DNA of 11,530 nucleotides from an uncultured archaeon (GTDB taxonomy: Archaea; Thermoplasmatota; Penumbrarchaeia; JASLWR01). The notes beneath the pieces were generated by a model. The model did no database searches. It was not told the DNA's origin and saw nothing but the letters and a program-made list of their open reading frames with translations. The position numbers were made by a program, and so were the translations under genes. Location: positions 1-11,530 of the forward strand of contig CAYFHS010000018.1 of NCBI GenBank assembly GCA_964342815.1. The letters are read 5' to 3'. Shown here piece by piece: positions 1-11,530 of the stretch; the stretch's first letter is position 1; every line of letters begins with the position of its first letter.

Positions 1-54
1 CAAGTGGGGAATTTTCAAGCGCCGAAATTGGGGAAAATTGGAGCGCCGTTGACA
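1..54. mobile_element. Terminal segment of a probable IS21-family insertion sequence (element extends left of the window)
   Basis: The reverse complement of 1-54 reads TGTCAACGGCGCTCCAATTTTCCCCAATTTCGGCGCTTGAAAATTCCCCACTTG. It has a 5'-TGT end followed by two spaced copies of an AA(A/T)(A/T)TTCCCCA-containing repeat, the architecture known for IS21-family ends (TG...CA termini, multiple internal transposase-binding repeats). The upstream membrane-protein frame changes character exactly at this boundary. No istA/istB is visible in the window. Confidence 0.7.
5..48 (+). repeat. Two imperfect 20-nt direct repeats, 24-nt period (putative transposase-binding sites)
   Basis: 5-24 TGGGGAATTTTCAAGCGCCG versus 29-48 TGGGGAAAATTGGAGCGCCG; 16/20 identical. 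Confidence 0.85.
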
Positions 55-300
55 TAACAATAACATATATAATCCAGCTAAACTAAAAATAGTTAAAGCA
101 ATAATTCCCACGCCCTGTCCAAGATAATATGCGAAGGAGGAGATGATATGGCGATCACCCATCAATACTTTAGATAAACTTTCAAATAAATGTTTTTTAC
201 CTTCTTTTAAGCGGCGGATCTGATATAGATTGAAAACACCAGCGAGAGAAAATAGGAATGCTGCCAGTATTGCGATTCCTTGATTTGGTGTGTCCATCAT
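55..300 (-). pseudogene. Small two-TM membrane protein, 3' end interrupted or replaced by the IS end (frame stays open to the window edge)
   Basis: Hand translation from ATG 300: MMDTPNQGIAILAAFLFSLAGVFNLYQIRRLKEGKKHLFESLSKVLMGDRHIISSFAYYLGQGVGIIALTIFSLAGLYMLLL (82 codons), then CQRRSNFPQFRRLKIPHL from IS sequence with no stop before position 1. Two hydrophobic segments flank a basic loop. AGGAAG lies 8 nt upstream, and the gene starts 23 nt after the stop of 324..743. It is absent from the ORF track, presumably because no stop lies in the window. Confidence 0.55.
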
Positions 301-323
301 ATGCGATACTTCCTGTCTCAAGT

Positions 324-743
324 CTAATCTTCGAAAGTATATTTCAATTTCCCTTTTATGAAAACCATATACCTATAACCACGAAATGCAGGAAAAAGGT
401 TCCGAGGTTTTTTGGGTTCGATCATAATAAAGATCGCTTCTTTCTTTAGATCATCAATATATGACATTACTACATTACCACGTAATAATCCTTGATTTGT
501 GATATTATTGTTCACCAATATTTGAAATGTTCCAACTCTTTTGACAAGGTAAAACTCTATTTTACAGGTCGAATTTTGTTTTAATTTAAATTCAAATTTT
601 ATATATTTTTCATTTAACTTTTTTTTCTTTCTTATCAATATATATGAGAGTTTGATAAAATAAATTAAGTATATGATGATGAATGATAACATTAATACCA
701 TCAAGAATAATCCAATGCGCTGGCCGGTAGATATGATATTCAT
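324..743 (-). CDS. Hypothetical membrane-anchored protein (N-terminal TM, basic stretch, beta-rich soluble part)
   Basis: 139-aa ORF in very AT-rich DNA, where such length is unlikely by chance. Hydrophobic segment IGLFLMVLMLSFIIIYLIYFI is followed by RKKKK. A TATA-like box lies upstream. No family recognised. Confidence 0.65.
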   Translation of the reverse strand: MNIISTGQRIGLFLMVLMLSFIIIYLIYFIKLSYILIRKKKKLNEKYIKFEFKLKQNSTCKIEFYLVKRVGTFQILVNNNITNQGLLRGNVVMSYIDDLKKEAIFIMIEPKKPRNLFPAFRGYRYMVFIKGKLKYTFED

Positions 744-770
744 ACCTCATTAATTTTTGTTTTTCTCTCC

Positions 771-780
771 TTATATAAAA
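771..780 (-). promoter_or_regulatory. Candidate archaeal TATA box for the 324..743 / 55..300 pair
   Basis: Minus-strand TTTTATATAA ends 28 nt upstream of ATG 743, matching archaeal spacing with a very short leader. The region is AT-rich, so a chance match is possible. Confidence 0.35.
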
Positions 781-1182
781 TCCTCATACACTATAGATTT
801 TACTCTTTATTGTTCCATGAATTACAATTTCTAAGCTCTGTAACGGCTTATTAAGGAAGTTATAAGGATCGGGAGAGTGCGGGCTAGGTAGGACACCTTT
901 AAGAGACGTCCTTCATCCAGAATGACCGAAACGGTTTTTACGAGATGGGAAAACGGGAATGGAAACAATATATATGATGGAATGGATGTATAATAAATGG
1001 AGGCGAAGAACAATTCGAAATTGACTATATGAAAACAATAAAGTCTGATTTACGCTCAATAAATACATCGCGTTTTAAAGAAATCTATTATAACAATATT
1101 AATATCGAGGATTTTTTATTTTAAAATTTTACATATAAAATTACAATTAATAATCAAATCATATTTGGTTCATGGTGGAAAA

Positions 1183-1746
1183 ATGGCGCAGCGAGAAAGA
1201 AAAATGAAAGATTGCCCAATATGTGGTTGTAAACTAAATCCGAAAAATTATGAAAGACATCTTTCCAAGGTCCATGGTACTGATCCTGAAAAACAAGAGA
1301 TAGAGGATAAAAGAAAATTAACAAGAGCGGAGGAGCGGAAATTGGAATATGAACAGAGAAGCAAGAAAATAAAAATTGCATTCACTATTACATTTATTGT
1401 TGTTATTGGAATTGTGATTTATTTCATAATGTTCCCGGATGATATGTCCGTGGATAACTTATTGCCAATTGGGGACGATGAAGGTCCCATAGCAAATGCA
1501 GGTCATGATGAAACGGTAGCTGTTGGTGAAGTAATTTCATTTACCGGGACTGGTTCCGGTTCAACTGGTTCTTTTGTCCAATTTGAATGGGATTTTGATG
1601 GCGATGGGATATATGATAATAGTTGTGGAACATGCGGCAATATACAACATTCATATGATGAGGCAGGCATCTATACTGCTACATTCAGAATAACAGATAG
1701 CGCTGGTGCAACAGGAACTGATACTCGCATTATCACCGTGATCTAG
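1183..1746 (+). CDS. C2H2-type zinc finger / single TM / PKD-domain protein
   Basis: CPICGCKLNPKNYERHLSKVH (C-x2-C-x11-H-x4-H), a charged coiled segment, TM IAFTITFIVVIGIVIYFIMF, then PKD hallmarks (PIANAG, ISFTG, FEWDFDGDG, HSYDEAGIYTATFRITDSAG). ATG 1183 with GGTGG upstream is preferred over TTG 1165. Confidence 0.85.
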   Translation: MAQRERKMKDCPICGCKLNPKNYERHLSKVHGTDPEKQEIEDKRKLTRAEERKLEYEQRSKKIKIAFTITFIVVIGIVIYFIMFPDDMSVDNLLPIGDDEGPIANAGHDETVAVGEVISFTGTGSGSTGSFVQFEWDFDGDGIYDNSCGTCGNIQHSYDEAGIYTATFRITDSAGATGTDTRIITVI

Positions 1747-1883
1747 TGAAAATTCGGTCCCGGTATATTATTTTTCATAATGGAATTTCTTTAGTATTGA
1801 ATTGTTTTTCATTTGATGAAAATATGTTATGGTTTTACTCATGATTTAGCTCCTCGTAATAAAAATTAGGAAACTTAAATAGT

Positions 1884-2693
1884 TCAATCTTCAGTATTTG
1901 TATCCAACATTTTAATTTCGAATATCATCGGTCTGCCGCCCAAGTGCTTGTAATCGTCCTCTCCATATCCCTTTTCCGGGGGTATCTCCACAACCCTGCT
2001 TTGACCTTCCCTCATCCCTTTGAGGCCCTCTTCAAAACCGATAATGACCGAGTTATCCTCTGCTTCGAATTCCCCCCCCTGATTGTGGTACCATCCATAC
2101 TCATTGAATATCTCTCCACCGCCGTAATACACCAAATTGTAATCGACCTTCGCCGGGTGATTATCCAGATCAGCTTCTTCGGAGCTAAATAGATCAACAG
2201 TATTCTTTGTTGTGATATATCCGGTCCTTGACGAATTTGTCGTTGATCTCACCTTAATTTTAATTTCCTGAAAAGTGTCTTTTTCCGTAATTTCGGTGGT
2301 AATCGTTACAATTTTGTAGCCCCATTCTTCTCCCGGAATCTGATTTAATTCATCACCGCCCGAAAAGGTTACATTCCAGCTGTTCGGGGCGTCAGATTCA
2401 AAAATGAACGAATCTTCTTTTATACCAGGGTTTTTTACAAGCACCAGATATTGCGTACCCACATCGGGATCTACCAGGTGAGAACTGCATTTGTATGGTT
2501 CATGACCACCATCTTCCTCATTCATGGTCTCAACTTTCATTGGAATTGAAGATTCGATTTTTAAATTATCGTCATCATCCTCATTATTGTCCTCGGTACC
2601 ATTGTCTTTTTTATCAGCGTTGATACATCCTACACTCCAGATGACCAGTAATACAGATATGCATGCTATAAAGGTCAATGACTTGTTCAGCAT
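1884..2693 (-). CDS. Predicted lipoprotein with a C-terminal FKBP-type peptidyl-prolyl isomerase domain and an N-terminal Ig-like (COG1470/NEW3-like) domain
   Basis: Signal/lipobox MLNKSLTFIACISVLLVIWSVG-C, an acidic linker, then YLVLVKNPGIKEDSFIFESDAPNSWNVTFS (Ig-like strand pattern). FKBP core VIIGFEEGLKGMREGQSRVVEIPPEKGYG...HLGGRPMIFEIKML. ATG 2693 has GGGTG 7 nt upstream; the ORF-track start at 2744 is less likely. Confidence 0.8.
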   Translation of the reverse strand: MLNKSLTFIACISVLLVIWSVGCINADKKDNGTEDNNEDDDDNLKIESSIPMKVETMNEEDGGHEPYKCSSHLVDPDVGTQYLVLVKNPGIKEDSFIFESDAPNSWNVTFSGGDELNQIPGEEWGYKIVTITTEITEKDTFQEIKIKVRSTTNSSRTGYITTKNTVDLFSSEEADLDNHPAKVDYNLVYYGGGEIFNEYGWYHNQGGEFEAEDNSVIIGFEEGLKGMREGQSRVVEIPPEKGYGEDDYKHLGGRPMIFEIKMLDTNTED

Positions 2694-2730
2694 TTTTTTA
2701 CACCCTGATTTTGAATAATACGGCACCTCA

Positions 2731-2738
2731 TTTATAAA
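2731..2738 (-). promoter_or_regulatory. Candidate archaeal TATA box for the FKBP lipoprotein gene
   Basis: TTTATAAA would place a start site near 2706, just ahead of the GGGTG RBS (2705-2701). A minus-strand T5 run at 2783-2779, about 20 nt after the activase stop, could end the upstream operon transcript. Confidence 0.4.
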
Positions 2739-2803
2739 TATCACTTAATTTTTGTTCTTAAACGCAATATTCTCAGCCAAAAAGTACACCCATTTAGATA
2801 CAT

Positions 2804-3601
2804 CTACTGCCTTTTCAAAAACATCTTCCTCGCTATTATCGCCGCACCCGTGGCAGTCACGATCTGGGGCATTGGAGGCACTACCATCTTCCGGCCCAGT
2901 TCAACCTCAAGAGCAGCTATCATTCCGATGTTTCTTGCCGGACCCCCATCGAAGAATACGTTATCACGGATCCCCACTTTCTTTGCCATACCCACAAGTC
3001 TTCTTGCCACCGCCTTGTGTATCCCTGCAATTATATCCTCCTTCTTTTCGCCCTTGAAAATAAGTGAAGCCACTTCTGATTTAGCAAATACCAGACAGGT
3101 CGTTGTGATATCCACGGGATTCTTGGAGCTCAGAGAAAGCTCCCCCATATCGTCGAGATCGACTTCCAGAACCCGTGCTAGTATCTCCAGGAACCGTCCG
3201 GTCCCGGCGGCGCACTTGTCGTTCATGGCAAAGTTTGTCATCTTCAGATCGTCATCAAGCGCAATTACCTTGGTGTCCTGCCCCCCTATATCGATGATCG
3301 TTCGTATTTTCTGTGTTTGTGCAATATGCTGCACTCCCGTGGCATTGGCGCTTATCTCGGATATGTTCTCGTCTGCAAAGCTTACCACTCTTCTGCCGTA
3401 TCCCGTGGACACCATATAATCCACTTTCCGGGGATTGATCTTCGCCAGACGACACGCCCGCTTCATCGTCTTCTTGGCTGTCTCTTCGTGGTCGGATCCT
3501 GTGGGAGATACTGCATATCCCACAATTTCCGTATTCTTCATTACCACCACCTTTGCGTAAGTGGACCCAAGATCGATTCCCGCTGTCAGCGTATCCCCCA
3601 T
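2804..3601 (-). CDS. ATP-dependent [4Fe-4S] electron-transfer activase (HgdC/BcrAD-BadFG/DCCP-R-like, ASKHA fold)
   Basis: GIDLGSTYAK, STGYGR, DIGGQDTK, NDKCAAGTGRFLE (C130), TTCLVFAKSEV (C169), DGGPARN and a C-terminal ATGAAIIA motif. Start overlaps the upstream stop (TGATG); GGTGA lies 6 nt upstream. Confidence 0.93.
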   Translation of the reverse strand: MGDTLTAGIDLGSTYAKVVVMKNTEIVGYAVSPTGSDHEETAKKTMKRACRLAKINPRKVDYMVSTGYGRRVVSFADENISEISANATGVQHIAQTQKIRTIIDIGGQDTKVIALDDDLKMTNFAMNDKCAAGTGRFLEILARVLEVDLDDMGELSLSSKNPVDITTTCLVFAKSEVASLIFKGEKKEDIIAGIHKAVARRLVGMAKKVGIRDNVFFDGGPARNIGMIAALEVELGRKMVVPPMPQIVTATGAAIIARKMFLKRQ

Positions 3602-5874
3602 CAGGAATCACCCCCGGCTGAAGCAATGATCAATGCGGCACCGAACGCACCTACGAACATCGGTTCGTCGGCCACGGTCACACTGTGTTTCATCCTCTTT
3701 TCAAGCTCTGACACCACGTTCTCGTTGGCAGCCACTCCCCCGGCGAGCAGAATATCGCCCTTGATTCCCATGGACTTCGCTATAGCAGACACTTTTTTGG
3801 CCACCATCTCGTTCAATCCCCCTATGATATTCTCTTTGTTGATCTTTTTAGCCACCAGTGAAACCATTTCGGATTCGGCGAAAACCGTGCACGTCGCCAC
3901 AACGCAGGACGGGCAGTCAGCCGCGCATCCGAGAGCGCCCATTTCATCCGGTTCCACGCCAAGCGACGCCGCCATTGTATCGAGAAACGTTCCAGTACCC
4001 GACGAGCATTTGTCGTTGGTCTTGAACGACGACAATACTCCGCCATCATCCAGGTCCATGACCCTTATCCCCTGACCTCCTATGTCTACCACTAGTCTAA
4101 CAGAATCCATCTGGGCCTTGGCTCCCTTGGCGAAGGCCGATATCTCCGTGGCATCCATATCTGCGAACTCGATGGAGTTCTTCCCCTGCCCTGTGGCAAT
4201 AATACCGGTAATATCTTTTTTCTTCAGACGGTTCTTCCGAAGCAGCTTTCTGAACATCCGGTAACCCAGGGAGTTGGGATCCATGGTGGTGGAATCCATC
4301 AATCTGTCCTTGACCTCGCCACCGCGAACGAGAACCATTTTTGTATATAACGCACCAACGTCGATTCCTACAAAATATTCGTCCCGCGTTGACTTATCTA
4401 ATTTCTTTTTTTCCCGGCTGCTTCCCAATAATCTTTTCTCTTCGGCCAATCCCGCCAGTTCCTCCAACTTCGTATCCCCGAATCCCTTTACCTCCTCCAC
4501 CGCCTGTTTTCCTGTTTTTTTGAACTCTTTTCGGGACTTGATCATTTCCAGGAAAGCTTCCACCCTTGTCCTGATCTGCTCCACATCCCCCTCGTCATAT
4601 TCCGTCTCCAATTTCAACATGGAAATCTGATTTTTTCGGAGCTCCATATCGATCCTGGAAGCTTCCAGGTTATTCAAATGACATCCCCGAAGAACGTGGA
4701 AAAGTACACCGTCCAGATCGTATTCTTCTAAATGATTGTTCATTCTCGTTATCCTCTCGTCGTTGGGAGTGAAACACGGACATGTGCATGGATAAAGATA
4801 CCGCTCCGCAATGGCCGTCACCATGGATGACATGGACCCCTCATCGATAACCACGGGGTCTTGAAGCAGCCGAGTGCTGGAGCACAGCTCATCTATGATT
4901 ATTATCCCGTCCGATTCCTCGACAAGATTGGGGATCTTCCAGTTAGGCCACATGATGGGGGAGCCCGCCAGAAGAATCCTTGGTGAATTTTCTCTTGCCA
5001 CCCATTCCTTTCGGGATTCTAGCTCGTCTATCTCCTTCAACAGTTTTTCCATATTCTCGCACCAACGGGGCAGGTCATCAATCAGAGAAAGCTGGGAGAT
5101 CAAGATCATGTCGGCACCCCAGAGGGATACCCGGTTCCGTTTTCTCGTTTCCATCAGTTTAGTCCAGAGGCGGACCGCCTCGTTATATTGACCAATCGCG
5201 TTTCTCAGGGATGCTCTCTTTATCCGAGCTCCGGTGAGGTCCTCAAGGCGGTACATGAGAAATTTCATTTCCTCAAGCCATGTCTTTGAGTTTGTGTCGC
5301 CGGTCTTGACCCTGGGGACGTTGAGCATCAATACCGGCACGAAATCCGAAAGTATTTCACCCAGCTTCATTTTCCCGTCGCAGGTGGCCGGTGCCACAAC
5401 AAGATCGCATAGCTCAAAGTAGGGGTCCGATTCTACCATCTTGTTACCCAGTGTCGATTTCACCATGGGACACAACCCGGCATCCCCCAGCAGCTCATTG
5501 GCAGGATGAACTGGATCATAATATCCGGAACACAAACGAACAACCTTTGCTCCCGTTGCCATGATCAGTTCATTTGGTGTGAAAACACAGAGGCTTCCCA
5601 CGATCTTTCCACCCTTTTCCTTGAACTCCTTCAATTCGGCGATGCGAGGCGAGTCACAGCCGGCCATCTCGTCGAAATAGCTCATGGCCTTTGGTCGGGG
5701 TTTCATGGATTCACGGTATTCCCTGTTCCGGACTGCCATCTCCATATTTCCCTTAGTCGTCTTTTCCCTCTGTTCCTCTATGTCCTGTTTCATGTCCTCC
5801 CGCATGTAACGAGGCTGGTTCACATTCGACAGTTCGGTAATAGAGTTATCCGTTTTTTTCCTGAAAATTCCCAA
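3601..5874 (-). CDS. Fusion: double-cubane cluster protein (2-hydroxyacyl-CoA dehydratase-family fold, aa ~56-446) + activase-like ASKHA domain (aa ~500-757)
   Basis: N domain motifs RPKAMSYFD, LCVFTPNEL (C96), LCSG, LCPMVKS (C135), TCDGK (C165), PRILLAGSP, WKI, DELC (C331), CTCPCFTPN (C367), LRGCH (C398) and LKLETEY...QIRTRVEAFLEMI parallel the Carboxydothermus DCCP sequence as I recall it. C domain: GIDVG, DIGGQ, NDKC623, TC662TVFAESE, GGVA, GAFGAAL. TTG start with GAGGTG 6 nt upstream. Confidence 0.88.
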   Translation of the reverse strand: MGIFRKKTDNSITELSNVNQPRYMREDMKQDIEEQREKTTKGNMEMAVRNREYRESMKPRPKAMSYFDEMAGCDSPRIAELKEFKEKGGKIVGSLCVFTPNELIMATGAKVVRLCSGYYDPVHPANELLGDAGLCPMVKSTLGNKMVESDPYFELCDLVVAPATCDGKMKLGEILSDFVPVLMLNVPRVKTGDTNSKTWLEEMKFLMYRLEDLTGARIKRASLRNAIGQYNEAVRLWTKLMETRKRNRVSLWGADMILISQLSLIDDLPRWCENMEKLLKEIDELESRKEWVARENSPRILLAGSPIMWPNWKIPNLVEESDGIIIIDELCSSTRLLQDPVVIDEGSMSSMVTAIAERYLYPCTCPCFTPNDERITRMNNHLEEYDLDGVLFHVLRGCHLNNLEASRIDMELRKNQISMLKLETEYDEGDVEQIRTRVEAFLEMIKSRKEFKKTGKQAVEEVKGFGDTKLEELAGLAEEKRLLGSSREKKKLDKSTRDEYFVGIDVGALYTKMVLVRGGEVKDRLMDSTTMDPNSLGYRMFRKLLRKNRLKKKDITGIIATGQGKNSIEFADMDATEISAFAKGAKAQMDSVRLVVDIGGQGIRVMDLDDGGVLSSFKTNDKCSSGTGTFLDTMAASLGVEPDEMGALGCAADCPSCVVATCTVFAESEMVSLVAKKINKENIIGGLNEMVAKKVSAIAKSMGIKGDILLAGGVAANENVVSELEKRMKHSVTVADEPMFVGAFGAALIIASAGGDS

Positions 5875-5885
5875 TCTTCACACCT

Positions 5886-6830
5886 CTATTTGTTGGGTTT
5901 TGATTCAATGATCGTTTTGTTGAATGCCAGCAAACCCAGCGCACCCTGCTCGGGACAGCACTCCACGCATCTGCCGCAAAGTGTGCACTCGGGTCCTGTA
6001 ATATTTTCCTTCTCCATCTCTTCATAAACCGTATGAAAATCCTGTGGACAGACACGCAGGCATATGCGGCATTTCGTGCATTTAGCCGGGTCTTTGCGCA
6101 GCCATATCAGAGATAGTTTATTGAACAATGCCATAAGCGCACCCATGGGACATATCCTGCACCAGAACATTCTTATGAAAAATGATCCAACAACGAAAAG
6201 TACGAGAACGATAATCGCGGTAATTGGTAATGCTGCTGAAGTGATACCGAAGGGTGCCTGAAGTAATGTAAAAAAACCTTGAGCGGGACATATCTGACAG
6301 TAAGGAAGTGATAGGGTTGCGGAATATTCACCAAATCCAAGGCTCGGGATTCCAATGCTTATTGCCACCAGGAGAGTAAAGAATAAAACCGCATATTTCA
6401 GCTGGTCCAGAAGGGAGATCCATTTCCGACTCAGCTGCAAATGAGGTATTCGCAGGGACTGTCTTATGGACATCAGCAGCTCCTGGGTCAATCCGAAAGG
6501 ACAAGCCCAGGAACACCACGTTCTTCCAAGGGCAACTATCAATAATAAAATTATGAGCATGGGTGTGATCATGTCAACATAAAAGGTTGAATATCCTCCC
6601 TGTAGCCATTGTTGCAGCGAATAGTAATAGCAGTAGGTTGGAGCATTGACGATGTAGCGGCATGATGCATTGGGGAGCAGTACGTAGCGTAATGTAGGGT
6701 CTCTTCCAAATTCGAACATTCCGAACAGAAGGCTGTTCAGGAGTATGAATATAAAAAATGCGATGAGCCTGCGGATAATGGTGATCCGTTTCTGTTTCGC
6801 CCATTCTTTCAACGACAAAATGAGACTCAT
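5886..6830 (-). CDS. Membrane polyferredoxin, NapH/MauN/RdxA-like 4Fe-4S binding protein
   Basis: Multiple TM segments; GRTWCSWACPFG, YCQICPAQG and FWCRICPMG motifs; two C-terminal ferredoxin motifs CTKCRICLRVCP and CTLCGRCVECCP. ATG 6830 (GGAGG 6 nt upstream, overlapping the upstream TGA) is preferred over 6851. Confidence 0.9.
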   Translation of the reverse strand: MSLILSLKEWAKQKRITIIRRLIAFFIFILLNSLLFGMFEFGRDPTLRYVLLPNASCRYIVNAPTYCYYYSLQQWLQGGYSTFYVDMITPMLIILLLIVALGRTWCSWACPFGLTQELLMSIRQSLRIPHLQLSRKWISLLDQLKYAVLFFTLLVAISIGIPSLGFGEYSATLSLPYCQICPAQGFFTLLQAPFGITSAALPITAIIVLVLFVVGSFFIRMFWCRICPMGALMALFNKLSLIWLRKDPAKCTKCRICLRVCPQDFHTVYEEMEKENITGPECTLCGRCVECCPEQGALGLLAFNKTIIESKPNK

Positions 6831-7552
6831 CATCCCCCTCCCACGACGCATTGTCCGGTAAAATATTTATTCATATAGTAAATCCCAATGCCAAGAAGGG
6901 TGAGGAGACTCATCATATTGAGAGTAAATGAGATCTTTGGATTGGCCTTCAAAGCAGCCAGTTGTGTGATAAGGTCCCCGATAAGAAAACCGATGATGGG
7001 GTATGCGCTGGAGGTGATGGCAAAAACCGCGGTGAGAAGGATTGCCAGAGGGAATCCCGTGGTGATCAAAAGGGGGGCCAGTATCAGCATCTTAAGGCAT
7101 GGTGTGGCCCCACGTAACATTCCGTATAGAAAACCGGTCTTTCCAGATATTTTTCCGGGCGGACTGTGCATGCTGCATCCCCCGCACCCCGTTCTTTCCT
7201 CTGTGCCGCATCCCGTGGGACATGAGGCGCAGTTTGTGCATCCTTCGTTTTCCCGTCTCACTCGCTTTGCCCTCCGCAATCCTGGTAGGATGTGTTTTAC
7301 AAAGATAAAAAGTGCAAACAGTACAGTAATTATCCCGAAGATCAGGGTATAAATATCGGTTGGGATATCGATGAAAAGTCCAAAGAGAGAAATTATAGTT
7401 CCCAACGTCATGATACCGATAAAACGTCCCAGAATGAAAGAGAGAGCCATGCTTTTAGAATGTGTGCGGTTGCCAAACGACAGAAGTAAACAGACCCAGG
7501 AATTCCAGAAAGAAACACCTATCATGGCTGCTGCCGCCACTTCCGGCCACAT
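6830..7552 (-). CDS. Polytopic membrane protein, CcdA/DsbD_2 (TauE/UreH-like) superfamily, with a Cys-rich loop
   Basis: About 6 hydrophobic segments; C21 in the first TM and GFLYGMLRGATPC152 resemble the two-Cys CcdA/DsbD_2 pattern. Loop CTNCASCPTGC...GCGGC. Start overlaps the upstream stop (TAATG). Confidence 0.65.
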   Translation of the reverse strand: MWPEVAAAAMIGVSFWNSWVCLLLSFGNRTHSKSMALSFILGRFIGIMTLGTIISLFGLFIDIPTDIYTLIFGIITVLFALFIFVKHILPGLRRAKRVRRENEGCTNCASCPTGCGTEERTGCGGCSMHSPPGKISGKTGFLYGMLRGATPCLKMLILAPLLITTGFPLAILLTAVFAITSSAYPIIGFLIGDLITQLAALKANPKISFTLNMMSLLTLLGIGIYYMNKYFTGQCVVGGG

Positions 7553-8865
7553 TATACCCGTCCCCTCCCTTTGCGGATCGATTTTGTCAATACGCTAAGC
7601 TCAACAAGAAATAATATTACCAGAACCAGCAGGATTATTTGAAGAATCAGTTTGAAAACATCGGTCTCTCCCAGGATTATCTCGATATCGTGTGTCTTTC
7701 CGTCTATCACGTAGATATGCGGCGAAGTGTAACCGCTTGTGTAATCCCCCTTTCCCTGGTAACCCCCCTGTGCAGCAATTATTTCCAGCTGTGGGTCCGC
7801 ATCCAGGTCCACTGCGGTAATTCCCATGACATCGGTGCCTAATAATGGACTCTTCCATTCGATATCATGGGTCATTCCGTCGATAATATAGAGATAACCG
7901 GGTTGATTTCCAACCATTATCTCCTCAACGTCATCGTCATCAACGTCCGCAACCGCAAAGCCAAAGGGTTTTGGTCCCAGGTTGCCGCTTTTGTAAAGCT
8001 TTTTATAAATCCCATCTGCAGGATCATACTGGAAAATATAGATCCAACCGTCGTTATAACGATAACCGTTCGATAAAACTATGTTCGGAGTCCCATCATT
8101 GTCGACGTCGCGTATAGCCAGCCCCTGCACGCATCCTCCCAGATCGTCGCTCTCCCATTCGGGTTTCCCCCTGGAATTGTTCGTGACATTATATACTCTA
8201 ATGTAACCTTCACCCGCTACATCGCCCAGAGCCGCCCCGCATCCGGCCACAACCTCCACGATACCGTCACCGTCAACGTCTCCCACGTCGATAGCCCGCC
8301 ACCTGGAATTGGCCTTCGCCGTCATAAAGAAGGGTTTATCGGTGCCACACTCTATCACATAGAACATCCCGTTCGGTTCATCGGTCTTGTATGCCGTACC
8401 CACTACGATATCATCCTTGCCGTCTCCTGTAAAATCATGAAGAGCGATTCCATGGGCATCCCTCCCCGATCCCTCATATTTCCATAGCAGTTTGCCGTCC
8501 TCCCCGGAAAATACAAATATTTTTCCCATACCGTTCCCAACCACAATTTCAACCCCATCGTCACCGTACACGTCCCCCAACTCGATTCCCCATACGCGAT
8601 TACCGCCCACCTCCAGGCTGTATTCGAGGAAGAAATCGCCCCGGACATATTCCAAAACGGTGACATATCCGTTGTAATCCCCGTAGACGAGTTCGATCTT
8701 GCCGTCGCCGTCAATGTCGCCGGCCTTGATTGAATTGTATCTCCCGGGTGCGGTATTGAAATCTTCACCGGAGACCTCGGCATTTATCGGGCCAGCAAAC
8801 GAAATTGTAATGAGAACGAGAAACAGAGAGAAACAGCTCAGCTTTCGAAAAAGATTTATCCGCAA
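7552..8865 (-). CDS. Secreted FG-GAP/VCBS-repeat beta-propeller with a C-terminal TM anchor
   Basis: Signal peptide; seven DxDxDG-type repeats (GDIDGDGKIE, GDVYGDDGVE, HDFTGDGKDD, GDVDGDGIVE, RDVDNDGTPN, ADVDDDDVEE, VDLDADPQLE); hydrophobic C-terminus followed by KSIRKGRGR. TTG start 1 nt after the upstream stop. Confidence 0.9.
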   Translation of the reverse strand: MRINLFRKLSCFSLFLVLITISFAGPINAEVSGEDFNTAPGRYNSIKAGDIDGDGKIELVYGDYNGYVTVLEYVRGDFFLEYSLEVGGNRVWGIELGDVYGDDGVEIVVGNGMGKIFVFSGEDGKLLWKYEGSGRDAHGIALHDFTGDGKDDIVVGTAYKTDEPNGMFYVIECGTDKPFFMTAKANSRWRAIDVGDVDGDGIVEVVAGCGAALGDVAGEGYIRVYNVTNNSRGKPEWESDDLGGCVQGLAIRDVDNDGTPNIVLSNGYRYNDGWIYIFQYDPADGIYKKLYKSGNLGPKPFGFAVADVDDDDVEEIMVGNQPGYLYIIDGMTHDIEWKSPLLGTDVMGITAVDLDADPQLEIIAAQGGYQGKGDYTSGYTSPHIYVIDGKTHDIEIILGETDVFKLILQIILLVLVILFLVELSVLTKSIRKGRGRV

Positions 8866-8866
8866 C

Positions 8867-10084
8867 TCAACCCCGCCTCCGCCTTAGTTTCTTTTTGAAT
8901 GGTCTGATAACTAGAAGGATCACGAAAACCACCGATACAAAAGTAAATATGCCCAGACCGACCCGGGTCTTTGTAAATATAATAAACTCTTCCACCGGTT
9001 CCTTCATGGAATACATTACTATATAGCGGGATTTCCCTAGAGCTGACACGAATTTACTGCCGTCAGGAGACCATCTTGAAGCCATTACGTTCGAATCGTA
9101 TTTCTCGCCCTCCCTGAATATAACTATTGGCTCGGATACTGCGGGATTATAAATACGGGCTCTCTTCTCTATACCTGAAGTTAGAAAATAATCGTTTGAC
9201 CTGGACCATCGGGCGCCTCTTACACAGTTATCGTGCTCGTATTTCTTGTGTGATCCCGCTTCAAGATCCCAAACCCTAGCTGTATAATCCCGGCTTCCGC
9301 TCACAATCCTCTTCTCATCCAAAGACCAATCGCAGTCCAGTACTCCGGAGGTATGGCCTTCGAGTTTTTTCCAAAGCGAGAAATTACCGGTCTCATAGAT
9401 GCAAATGGTGGTGTCGTCAGAATTTACTGCAAGTTTAGATCCACTGGGGCTGAACCGGGCCGAAATAATTGGTCCTGCAGTCTGATCAGCAAGGGTTCGG
9501 ATACATTTCCCCGTGGCCACATCCCATACTTTTGCGACATTTTTCGAGACGCCCGTACCATTTACTTTTTCTCTTCCTGACCCGCTGACAATCCAAGTAC
9601 CGTTAGGTGACCAATCGACGCATAGAACGGAACCCAGATGCCCGGAGAGCTTTTTATTCTCGGTCCAATCCGAGGTGGTAAAGATGTGGATTACTTTGTC
9701 ATCCCCGCAAACCGCAAGATACCTGCTGTCGGGAGAGAACGACAGATAACGCAATGGATGCTGGATCCCGGCAGGAACCAATCCGTCGCAGCGAGTTCGA
9801 GTATCCGGAATACCGAAGGAATGTTCCAGCACTCCAGTGCTGGCATTGTAAATGTTCACTTGTCTGTCGAAATAGACTCCCGCGATCATGGAACCGTCCG
9901 GAGACCAGTCACACATCCACAGTGTCGCCAGCGAATCAGTCCTCTGTGCCTCCCATTCAACCGTCAACCAGTCCGGGCGTAGTTCGGTAGACGTTTCGCC
10001 CTTTACAGCAAACGGGATCTTTAATGAAATGGATAAAATGATCTGTATGAGGATGACAGATAGGGCTAAATATCTACGAATCAT
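8867..10084 (-). CDS. WD40-repeat beta-propeller with a signal peptide and C-terminal TM anchor
   Basis: About 7 WD40 repeats (DWSPDGSMIA, SFSPDSRYLA, SGHLGSVLCVDWSPNG...KVWD, RFSPSGSKLA, EGHTSGVLDCDWS...RVWD, RWSRSND, RWSPDGSKF). N-terminal hydrophobic leader; TM VGLGIFTFVSVVFVILLVI + RPFKKKLRRRR. Start overlaps the upstream gene by 11 nt; GGAGG upstream. Confidence 0.92.
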   Translation of the reverse strand: MIRRYLALSVILIQIILSISLKIPFAVKGETSTELRPDWLTVEWEAQRTDSLATLWMCDWSPDGSMIAGVYFDRQVNIYNASTGVLEHSFGIPDTRTRCDGLVPAGIQHPLRYLSFSPDSRYLAVCGDDKVIHIFTTSDWTENKKLSGHLGSVLCVDWSPNGTWIVSGSGREKVNGTGVSKNVAKVWDVATGKCIRTLADQTAGPIISARFSPSGSKLAVNSDDTTICIYETGNFSLWKKLEGHTSGVLDCDWSLDEKRIVSGSRDYTARVWDLEAGSHKKYEHDNCVRGARWSRSNDYFLTSGIEKRARIYNPAVSEPIVIFREGEKYDSNVMASRWSPDGSKFVSALGKSRYIVMYSMKEPVEEFIIFTKTRVGLGIFTFVSVVFVILLVIRPFKKKLRRRRG

Positions 10085-11411
10085 TTTTTTTCAACCTCCT
10101 CTTGCGGGATATCAAAATCACCAAAAATAATATGTCCAAAATAGCAAAAACAATAATCGGGATCAAAAGAGTCGGATAGAGCTTCAATTCTTCGTCTTGC
10201 GCCGTTTCATCCGTCTCTCCATCTATTTCACCGATTTCAACTCCTTTCAAACAATACATGTAACCGTCAGTGCTACCGACATAAAGATTCGCTCCCGAGA
10301 AAACAGGCGAGGCAACTATGGTTCCGGCTGTCTTGAAGCTCCATTCCTCGGTGCCGTTTTCATAATTTATTGAAAATAATGAATCACCCATTCCAATAAC
10401 AATAATATCCGAAATAATAAGTGGTGACGATCCGCCCTCGAAGTTCTCCGCTTCGAACTTCCAAATAACCTCACCCGGACTGATTATTTTATTGTCATCA
10501 GGGTCCTCGAAGGGTATACAATATATAAATTCGTAATCCGAAAAGAAGATTCTATCCTTGTTCATGCCTGCGGAAGTGTACATATCCGTCCCGGCCTTGA
10601 ATTCCCATACAATTTGCCCCGTTTTTCCGTTGTATCGGTATAGCGACCGGTCGATCCCGGAGGAAAATAGAATATCGTCTCCCTCGATCATAACCGTGGA
10701 ATAGATGTCGCCGTCCGTTATAATCTCGTAGATGAACTCGCCTGATTTTGCGTCCAGGCAGACCAATCTTCCCGATGAATCTCCGATATAAAGTAGATTA
10801 TCCTTAATTGCGGGAGTGGACCATACGCTGCCGCCGAATGAAATTGAATAATTCCAGGCCATTGTACCGTTATTTTCGTGTAAACAGTAGATATTTCCAT
10901 CATCAGCACCGAAGTATATTTTTTCCTTGTACAGTTTGGGAGAGCTCATTATCCCTCTGCCAGCGGAAAAATTCCATTGCTCAATACCGTACTCGGCATT
11001 GATACAGTAAAATTTTTTATCTCCACTACCGATGTATAATTTCGCTTTGGACACCAGAGGCGAACTGGAAATATCACCTCCTGTGGGAAAGATCCATTTT
11101 ACGACACCGGTTTGTGCATCGAGACAGTAAACGGATCCGTCCTTGGAACCGAAATATATCTTTCCGGACACTACTGCCGGGGAAGATTCGATCCCTCCGT
11201 CAGTCTTGAACTTCCAGAGCAGTTCATCAGTGGTTCTTCCCTTGGAAGGATAGATCCCGCTGTTTGAGTTATCCCCCCTGAACTGGTTCCAATCACTATT
11301 CCCTCTGGTGAATTCACCAGCTGCAATTGAGGTATTAACCAAGAATAGAAGGAATAACATACCTGCGATCATAATTGTCTTTATTTCGATTCCCGAAAAG
11401 CTCTCTTCCAT
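10074..11411 (-). CDS. PQQ-binding-like (BamB-type repeat) 8-bladed beta-propeller with a signal peptide and C-terminal TM anchor
   Basis: WNQFRGDNSNSG leader motif and eight blades of the SSPxV...YFGS.DG..YCLD...G...W type; TM LLIPIIVFAILDILFLVILI + RKRRLKK. An alternative start is ATG 11372. Confidence 0.92.
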   Translation of the reverse strand: MEESFSGIEIKTIMIAGMLFLLFLVNTSIAAGEFTRGNSDWNQFRGDNSNSGIYPSKGRTTDELLWKFKTDGGIESSPAVVSGKIYFGSKDGSVYCLDAQTGVVKWIFPTGGDISSSPLVSKAKLYIGSGDKKFYCINAEYGIEQWNFSAGRGIMSSPKLYKEKIYFGADDGNIYCLHENNGTMAWNYSISFGGSVWSTPAIKDNLLYIGDSSGRLVCLDAKSGEFIYEIITDGDIYSTVMIEGDDILFSSGIDRSLYRYNGKTGQIVWEFKAGTDMYTSAGMNKDRIFFSDYEFIYCIPFEDPDDNKIISPGEVIWKFEAENFEGGSSPLIISDIIVIGMGDSLFSINYENGTEEWSFKTAGTIVASPVFSGANLYVGSTDGYMYCLKGVEIGEIDGETDETAQDEELKLYPTLLIPIIVFAILDILFLVILISRKRRLKKNDS

Positions 11412-11435: not shown

Positions 11436-11443
11436 TCTATAAA
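11436..11443 (-). promoter_or_regulatory. Candidate TATA box for the 7-gene operon (leaderless transcript)
   Basis: Minus-strand TTTATAGA occupies -32..-25 relative to the A of ATG 11411, preceded by GCTAAA (BRE-like). No Shine-Dalgarno precedes this ATG, whereas internal genes have one. Confidence 0.4.
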
Positions 11444-11530
11444 TTTAGCGGCATTCGCGCTTTCAAACGATACCGTAATCTTCATCTGCGTGTTCTTGAT
11501 GAGGAGGGAGGGAGGTTCGGAAAGTGGATT

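Follow-up and report, generated by a model that had tools for sequence, protein, structure and literature searches.

The DNA analysed here (the window) comprises 11,530 nt at the start of the 77-kb contig CAYFHS010000018.1 (C18 in contig coordinates), from a marine Thermoplasmatota genome of 4.35 Mb that is 89% complete; the DNA is present in marine and seawater metagenomes. Its minus strand carries seven consecutive genes, g1 to g7, which combine surface beta-propellers with membrane proteins and an ATP-dependent double-cubane cluster protein (DCCP) system. The propellers come first: g1 (10074..11411) encodes an anchored PQQ-like (BamB-like) beta-propeller of 445 aa recognized by Pfam and hydrophobicity, g2 (8867..10084) an anchored WD40 beta-propeller of 405 aa (Pfam WD40, hydrophobicity) and g3 (7552..8865) an anchored FG-GAP (integrin-alpha-like) beta-propeller of 437 aa (Pfam FG-GAP_3). 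They are followed by g4 (6830..7552), a divergent DsbD_2/CcdA-like membrane protein of 240 aa assigned by profile-profile and fold comparison, and by g5 (5886..6851), a NapH-like four-helix membrane polyferredoxin with the Pfam domains Fer4_5 and Fer4_10. The last two genes are g6 (3601..5874), a fusion of HGD-D and BcrAD_BadFG domains in which a DCCP domain (residues 1-455, 4510..5874; NF040772 and PDB matches) is joined to an activase/archerase paralogue, ActA (about residues 496-757, 3601..4389; TIGR00241 and Pfam), and g7 (2804..3601), a free activase/archerase ATPase of 265 aa, ActB (TIGR00241).

Re-reading of the open reading frames (ORFs) returned all seven on the minus strand and at the coordinates that a preliminary description of this DNA had given, and the domain assignments made there were confirmed by Pfam and NCBIfam and, for g4, by profile-profile and fold comparison. 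Read from the sequence, the junctions from g1 to g7 measure -11, +1, -1, -1, +11 and -1 nt, as had been listed, if the g5 start is set at the latter ATG of the ATGATG that makes up codons 7-8. GGAGG lies just 5′ of this site, and the g4/g5 junction is then -1; a start at the first ATG of g5 would make the overlap 22 nt. Codon 7 or 8 is thus the likely start, as judged from these letters. Shine-Dalgarno-like boxes (GGAGG or GAGGTG-like) lie 5′ of g2-g7, and a putative TATA-like box, AAATTTATAG (11437..11446, minus strand), was read ~30 nt upstream of the g1 ATG, in agreement with the internal ribosome-binding sites and the single upstream TATA-like box noted previously. The preliminary description had also spoken of a seven-gene operon. 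Seven genes do lie in the window, but as the size of the unit this number is an artefact of where the window ends: on the contig beyond it, a fourth anchored PQQ-like propeller is encoded upstream on the same strand (C18:11784-13292, minus strand) by a complete gene with an extra C-terminal domain. Further out, and divergent from g1-g7, are a canonical DsbD_2 gene (C18:13486-14127, plus strand; Pfam 3.9e-15) and the gene of an FtsX-type permease of 1194 aa with two FtsX domains (C18:14156-17740, plus strand); no ABC ATPase gene adjoins the permease on this part of the contig.

A scan with an alignment of g3 recovered 44 loci, all in Thermoplasmatota metagenome-assembled genomes (MAGs), and the counts that follow are limited to loci whose contig allows them. 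After g3, g5 was found in 38/38 loci and the DCCP in 33/33; before it, g2 was found in 36 of 37 loci and g1 in 32 of 33. Activases adjoin in 17/27 loci. The FtsX-type permease, divergent in the window's contig, lies upstream on the same strand in 21 related loci, and the conserved set includes both this permease and the fourth propeller. The preliminary description had let its proposal hang on the propeller and redox genes occurring together elsewhere, and because the order is fixed in every locus long enough to be informative, the linkage stands. The g3 gene is present in 32/401 Thermoplasmatota species genomes, mostly of the window's class; one genome of the same genus, 93% complete, gave no g3 match. 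Two layouts recur among the loci: one is without g4 and has two adjacent activases (16 loci), and the other has g4 and no adjacent activase (10 loci), with tandem activase pairs mostly present elsewhere in those genomes. Only the window and loci L020 and L049 have g4 together with adjacent activases, and the DCCP-activase fusion was found only in the window and in its closest relative, L029, which is without g4. The window is therefore a rare hybrid variant, with g4, adjacent activases and one of these fused to the DCCP.

Other neighbours occur in a few loci each, namely acyl-CoA dehydrogenase, GNAT, fn3 and Kelch proteins, NMO, and a radical SAM protein with a small protein; among these neighbours in the archaeal loci we found no pointer to a substrate. 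In L059, L060, L064 and L069, which have the g4-bearing layout, the DCCP is followed by the radical SAM protein (~280 aa), the small protein and a PQQ-like protein of 1300-1650 aa, and in L045, L054 and L066 a Kelch propeller lies downstream of the DCCP instead. A second archaeal variant (L143, L145, L146 and L147, in Thermoplasmatota/'Methanobacteriota' MAGs) encodes a surface protein with an EB_dh (haem-binding type) domain and fn3 repeats, a propeller of 629 aa, a NapH-like protein extended at the N-terminus (600 aa), DCCP and activase(s).

A second scan, with distant members of the g5 subfamily, gave 80 loci from Desulfobacterota, Alpha- and Gammaproteobacteria, Sporomusa ovata, Omnitrophota, Planctomycetota, Lentisphaerota, Bathyarchaeia and others. 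In ~66/80 loci, the NapH-like gene is followed directly by DCCP and activase genes, and this redox trio is always beside extracytoplasmic proteins (DUF4198, TonB-dependent receptor, CARDB, CBM9-like or beta-propeller). Around the trio, double-membraned bacteria encode a TonB-dependent receptor, DUF4198, DsbD_2 (23 loci) and ExbB/ExbD/TonB, and Bathyarchaeia encode a CARDB surface protein, DsbD_2, two activases and a terminal small ferredoxin. Both scans bear on the reading that the cluster is a chance adjacency of two unrelated modules, surface or adhesion propellers on the one side and a cytoplasmic reductase with its membrane ferredoxin on the other. The propeller families are indeed generic, and the link is known from the genes only; however, across several families every informative locus (33/33 to 38/38) keeps the same order, with overlapping or 1-nt junctions, and in other phyla the trio is likewise always preceded by extracytoplasmic proteins, there of other folds. 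We consider chance adjacency very improbable and the set very probably one functional unit.

The identification of g6 as a DCCP, proposed in the preliminary description, is well founded. Its N-terminal domain scores 353.8 bits against NCBIfam NF040772 (double_cubane), just above the cut-off of 350, and 356 bits in the whole-genome search, and it matches the solved structures 7yyl_C at 1.2e-78 and 6eno at 5e-78. The published DCCP motif is CX19CX18-19CX29CX166-170CX32-34CX32C (PMC7317905). The g6 sequence reads C96-X18-C115-X19-C135-X29-C165-X165-C331-X33-C365-X32-C398; all seven motif Cys are present, and the exact published pattern fails because two spacings differ by one. A relaxed pattern fits 31/38 relatives, and in 34 relatives six of the motif Cys are invariant, the seventh, C115 at a non-ligand position, being the variable one. 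The domain aligns with the long form of DCCP from residue 35 of the solved protein. According to its discoverers, the physiological function of DCCP is not known (PMC9351452, PMC7317905).

After a linker of ~50 residues, the C-terminal domain of g6 (ActA) scores 191 bits against TIGR00241 (cut-off 125) and 2.2e-38 against Pfam BcrAD_BadFG; g7 (ActB) reaches 261 bits against the same model and cut-off and is 63-84% identical to its orthologues. The cluster-bridging Cys are C623/C662 in ActA and C130/C169 in ActB, the counterpart cluster Cys of the reductase DCCP-R being C115/C152 (PMC9351452). In the phosphate-1 loop, ActA has GIDVGALYTK and ActB the canonical GIDLGSTYAK. ActA-type orthologues (L020, L031-L071) always show GxDVG-A-(I/L)-x-T-K, with Ala for Ser, while the ActB paralogue and most bacterial single activases have G-S at that position; since the substitution runs through all of ActA, the activase pair may be asymmetric.

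In g5, the Fer4_5 domain is accompanied by a dicluster ferredoxin domain (Fer4_10), and four hydrophobic segments follow a positive-inside charge pattern. The CX3CP motif (C113/C117), the CX2CP motif (C231/C234) and the two cytoplasmic 4Fe-4S motifs (CX2CX2CX3C) are all invariant in the relatives, and an AlphaFold2 (AF2) model has a predicted local distance difference test (pLDDT) value of 79.5. A PDB search with g5 returned generic ferredoxin domains only and no solved NapH-type membrane domain. Its best NCBIfam matches are NapH/MauN models, at scores far below the NapH cut-offs (NF007013/TIGR02163; 90.8 vs 234 and 88.5 vs 213 bits), and its sequence thus makes g5 a relative of NapH, not NapH. 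Nevertheless, the named matches invite the reading that the locus encodes a quinol-linked respiratory or energy-conserving module, in which a genuine quinol dehydrogenase of the NapH type would supply an external terminal reductase, and the haem-binding type surface protein of the second Thermoplasmatota variant could be cited for it as well. We regard this as extremely improbable: besides the low scores, neither the window nor the 18 kb beyond it nor the conserved neighbours of the 44 relatives include partners of the NapG/NapA type, and spending ATP on energising electrons is the opposite of energy conservation.

Besides these motifs, g5 has a quartet of Cys (C64, C74, C185 and C188) in two loops that charge and hydrophobicity place on the outside. 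In the relatives, the four stand or fall together: a protein has all of them or has Thr, Ser, Glu and Asp/Ala in their places, one intermediate case apart. Across a broader sampling of the g5 subfamily all 16 Cys are invariant, the quartet included. Every g5 without the quartet in the relatives' loci has g4 beside it. From this conservation pattern the quartet looks like a single functional site on the outer face, for which the CcdA-like protein may stand in.

The preliminary description had envisaged a redox membrane complex, and structure prediction supports its g5-DCCP part. Modelled as a complex, g5 and the DCCP domain reached a score of 0.70 (best control 0.32); this mark was reached by 58/80 solved complexes and by 2/110 mismatched pairs, a calibration that is rough only, since custom alignments were used here. 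Three runs agreed in at least 95% of contacts, with a partner pLDDT of 85. In the model, the first 4Fe-4S motif of g5 (255-267) lies against DCCP residues 339-362, beside the ligand C365, and the interface as a whole brings two parts of g5, its first cluster motif and its second cytoplasmic loop, up against DCCP residues 190-238 and 339-380. The predicted g5 interface is away from the DCCP region aligned with the reductase contact (N111 of the solved protein), and in the solved complex one reductase dimer sits on the DCCP dimer axis (PMC9351452). No NapH-DCCP complex is among the PDB matches for g5 and g6. The modelling supports binding of g5 to the DCCP.

The assignment of g4 as CcdA-like, also made previously, is right at the superfamily level. 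The protein has a Cys in transmembrane helix 1 (TM1; C21), an RGATPC motif (C152) and a variable Cys/His-rich loop. Across its family of 19 members, RGATPC is invariant and the TM1 Cys is present in every member that spans that helix. Sequence comparison alone says little: g4 has no Pfam match at E up to 1, the DsbD_2 model PF13386 included, no NCBIfam match, and no match in a PDB sequence search or in BLASTP against the neighbouring DsbD_2; within the family one member matches DsbD_2 at E 0.0058 and single members match TauE and Cad. The superfamily placement follows from fold and profile. In the AF2 model of g4 (pLDDT 76), C21 and C152 both lie at helix breaks, and Foldseek gave CcdA 5vkv as the only standout match (probability 0.99, E 0.07, TM 0.51/0.54). 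Using hhalign, the g4-family alignment matched an alignment of bona fide DsbD_2 proteins associated with the module at 98% (E 2.5e-13, 193 columns), and a single neighbouring DsbD_2 sequence at 20%. The protein is optional in the system, being present in 16/39 relatives.

With a CcdA-like protein that keeps one conserved Cys per half, a second DsbD_2 gene beside the permease, and WD40 and PQQ-like propellers that are rich in Cys, the cluster could be read as a thiol-disulfide export system, that is, a CcdA/DsbD-type pathway keeping the Cys of surface proteins reduced or paired with the help of an unusual cytoplasmic donor. Known CcdA/DsbD pathways, however, draw on thioredoxin and need no ATP-driven low-potential reductase, and g4 is missing from 23/39 relatives, the closest one included. 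Furthermore, the alignment of g3 has no invariant Cys column, and no exported thioredoxin-like partner turned up among the conserved neighbours, for which no dedicated search was made. We therefore judge thiol-disulfide export quite improbable.

The propellers g1, g2 and g3 each have a signal-like hydrophobic N-terminus and a C-terminal helix with a basic tail, because of which they should face outward; hydrophobicity and the basic tails thus agree with the signal peptides and C-terminal anchors that had been proposed for them. The hydrophobic segments are at residues 13-31 and 416-434 in g1 and at 5-23 and 375-393 in g2. By Pfam, g1 matches Beta-prop_ACSF4 (1.7e-60) and PQQ_2 (1.6e-35), and it is below the cut-off for PQQ-dependent dehydrogenases (69 vs 480 bits; TIGR03075 and related), resembling BamB and archaeal cell-surface PQQ-like repeat proteins. 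The g2 protein matches WD40 at 5.5e-38. In g3, which matches FG-GAP_3 at 1.4e-19, DxDxDG motifs are present and the last blade and transmembrane anchor are strongly conserved; it is 42-67% identical to its relatives in the alignment, and its PDB profile matches are ITFG2 and integrin alpha. Viewed as possible BtuG-like corrinoid binders, the propellers have PDB matches only to BamB, designer propellers, integrin and ITFG2, which speak neither for nor against such a role.

A link to cobalamin comes from the bacterial loci. In an Rfam scan, a cobalamin riboswitch (RF00174) was found on the same strand upstream of the trio operon in 7/28 bacterial loci, and in an eighth it lies just downstream of the trio. 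In the cultured Sporomusa ovata DSM 2662 (L097, NZ_CP146301.1:2544114-2561013), the trio stands behind such a riboswitch, in the order riboswitch, NifH-like, two NifDK-like, an unknown 284-aa protein, NapH-like, DCCP and activase; riboswitch-led CbiK-CbiZ and TonB-receptor units lie further on. This locus thereby holds two different ATP-driven low-potential reductase systems in one B12-controlled unit. The cobalamin link is real for a sizeable minority of bacterial loci and is not universal. In the window's genome (89% completeness), two proteins with B12-binding domains were found, and CbiC and CobS were not; this gene content is compatible with a need for cobamide uptake, and no more.

How might the parts work together? 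As in class I benzoyl-CoA reductases, the two activases would pair as a heterodimer, ActA/ActB, with a [4Fe-4S] cluster held between them, and ATP hydrolysis would push an electron onto the [8Fe-9S] cluster of the DCCP, as in the solved DCCP:DCCP-R complex. The DCCP would sit on the cytoplasmic ferredoxin domain of the NapH-like protein, where electrons would be exchanged. The published DCCP cluster is not reducible by dithionite (PMC9351452), so that electrons exchanged directly with ordinary ferredoxin clusters should move from the DCCP to the membrane protein. Reducing power would then reach the outer face through the Cys quartet, the CcdA-like protein or both, and would there act on something held by the anchored propellers, which would work with the FtsX-type permease. 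The best overall reading, in our view about evenly poised between right and wrong, is that ATP-boosted electrons pass between the DCCP and the membrane protein and serve the surface capture apparatus. That reducing power goes outward is a possibility we rate slightly short of even. In a stronger form, which we put forward tentatively and doubt more than we credit, the NapH-like protein, the DCCP and the activases would be an ATP-driven pump of very-low-potential electrons across the membrane, with the DCCP as a relay and not the terminal enzyme; electrons would exit via the outer four-Cys site or, in some lineages, a CcdA-like relay, and would reduce a ligand such as a corrinoid or metal complex before its uptake. 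Because the bacterial modules sit with a TonB-dependent receptor, DUF4198 and ExbBD-TonB, and often with a cobalamin riboswitch, reductive capture or processing of a scarce metal or metallocofactor seems the likeliest of the possible functions; by this analogy the ligand may be a corrinoid, cobalt or other scarce metal species, an identification in which we place little confidence.

Alternatively, the DCCP may be a terminal cytoplasmic enzyme acting on a small molecule brought in by the propellers and the FtsX-type permease, with the NapH-like protein serving as an anchor and as donor to the activases and with nothing going outward. Characterised relatives (DCCP, 2-hydroxyacyl-CoA dehydratases and benzoyl-CoA reductases) all end the electron's path on a substrate-binding cluster (PMC7317905, PMC9351452), and g6 spans much of the N-terminal extension that gives the long form its narrow small-molecule channels. 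Additionally, the docking model fits this alternative equally well, and the small ferredoxin gene that ends the Bathyarchaeia version could encode the donor. A terminal enzyme leaves unexplained, however, why the NapH-like quartet is invariant across phyla and why a CcdA-like protein recurs, and no importer of a known substrate is conserved in the archaeal loci. We consider a terminal cytoplasmic role unlikely, although it is the main alternative.

Several observations weigh against electron delivery to the cell surface. Only the very low potential of the DCCP cluster speaks to the direction of electron flow. The docking score is a measure of model confidence, obtained with shallow custom alignments and with a DCCP monomer although DCCP is dimeric. 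The Cys quartet is at most a candidate cluster or metal site, and the quartet-less, g4-bearing loci may be a single clade, in which case the loss of the quartet could be one evolutionary event. Both g4 and the adjacent activases vary across loci, and locus L067, on a complete 2.0-Mb chromosome (CP070767.1), encodes g4, g5 and DCCP, yet no full activase was found anywhere on that chromosome, the best match being 40 bits; the locus has a fragment only of g3, is without g1 and g2, and may be a decaying copy or a DCCP working without ATPase. None of the cluster's proteins has a recognisable extracellular redox cofactor site, and the propellers look like generic scaffolds. As to the ligand, 20/28 of the bacterial loci scanned have no riboswitch, the archaeal loci are without one, and no B12 or metal gene is conserved beside the archaeal clusters.

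Further features flank the cluster. Between the fourth propeller gene and g1, the intergenic region holds an array of 13-nt tandem repeats; its last unit in the window is at 11503..11530 (no strand), and the array runs past the window end and a 100-N scaffold gap (C18:11531-11630), which breaks it, to resume at C18:11631-11765. At least 10 copies are present, of two kinds, GAATCCACTTTCC and GAATCCATTTGCC, and the array could influence expression, since it stands just upstream of the TATA-like box. On the other side, 59 nt downstream of g7, a gene on the minus strand (g8, window 1884-2744) encodes a peptidyl-prolyl isomerase of the FKBP type, which has an acidic linker and a signal like that of lipoproteins (…WSVGC…); it was considered as a member of the cluster and rejected, being absent at that position in all relatives. 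A zinc-ribbon/TM/PKD-domain protein is encoded at window 1165-1746 (plus strand), and the left end (window 1-2000) has a GC content of 31-35% vs 45-52% and small membrane-protein ORFs with no family matches.

No publication that we found treats DCCP together with NapH-like proteins or reports this cluster, which matches the preliminary description, whose author knew of no described system with this combination of parts. New here are the hybrid fused variant, the all-or-none Cys quartet with its relation to g4, the profile-level identity of g4, the docking model and the riboswitch count. DCCPs are widespread and have nitrogenase-like reducing power (PMC9351452, PMC7317905). Their fixed genomic association with a membrane polyferredoxin, with a CcdA-like protein and with extracytoplasmic proteins of capture or uptake indicates where, and with whom, at least one large DCCP subfamily works. 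The association is found in archaea as well as in many bacterial phyla, and some of the bacteria would, judging by the riboswitches, repress it with cobalamin. With Sporomusa ovata as a cultured organism that has the trio behind a B12 riboswitch, there is experimental access, and the enzyme family gains a testable cellular context. For the Thermoplasmatota, these genes delineate a large cell-surface apparatus that is typical of the lineage and belongs to uncultured archaea of marine and sediment habitats. As a whole this is an archerase/DCCP system with a membrane and surface extension, and it would be a new kind of machine were ATP-driven electron transfer to the outside demonstrated.

Compared with known systems, g5 shares with NapH, MauN and NosH its four TM helices, the Cys-Xn-Cys-Pro motifs that follow TM2 and TM4, and a pair of cytoplasmic 4Fe-4S motifs. 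It differs in the form of its second motif (CX2CP), in the additional outer-face Cys quartet found across the subfamily, in scores far under the NapH cut-offs, in its fixed partner DCCP, and in that no NapG/NapA-like gene was seen at the locus. CcoG, a cupric reductase, is related to the NapH/MauN/NosH polyferredoxins and shares their layout. With CcdA/DsbD_2 proteins (PDB 5VKV), g4 has in common one conserved Cys at a helix break per half; in contrast to them, it has no Pfam match at the sequence level, a single Cys where their TM1 has CxxxC, a long, variable, Cys/His-rich central loop and an optional place in its system. A thioredoxin-like partner was also absent among its conserved neighbour genes, without a dedicated thioredoxin search.

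The class I benzoyl-CoA reductases (BcrABCD/MbdONQP) are likewise ATP-driven low-potential reductases with a heterodimeric activase-type pair, and g7 and the C-terminal domain of g6 match MbdQ/MbdP and BcrA/D. Where those enzymes have the BcrB/C pair, the window has a single DCCP-type HGD-D gene, with no aromatic-CoA pathway genes in the window and with a membrane and surface context. The bacterial cassettes of TonB receptor, DUF4198, NapH-like protein, DCCP, activase and DsbD_2, for which we found no publication either, have the same NapH-like subfamily with its 16 invariant Cys, followed by DCCP and activase, and like the window they have extracytoplasmic capture proteins upstream and often DsbD_2. 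They differ in having outer-membrane uptake machinery and one activase, and 7/28 are behind cobalamin riboswitches, whereas the archaeal version has anchored propellers, an FtsX-type permease, two activases and no riboswitch. Finally, DCCP/DCCP-R of Carboxydothermus hydrogenoformans (CHY_0487/0488; PDB 6ENO and 7YYL) shares with the system described here the protein family, the motif Cys and the adjoining activase. That system is soluble and encoded by two genes, with a homodimeric reductase; here there are two activase paralogues, one of them fused to the DCCP, and the DCCP gene always follows that of a NapH-like protein, the predicted docking partner of the DCCP, the whole set being tied to surface proteins.

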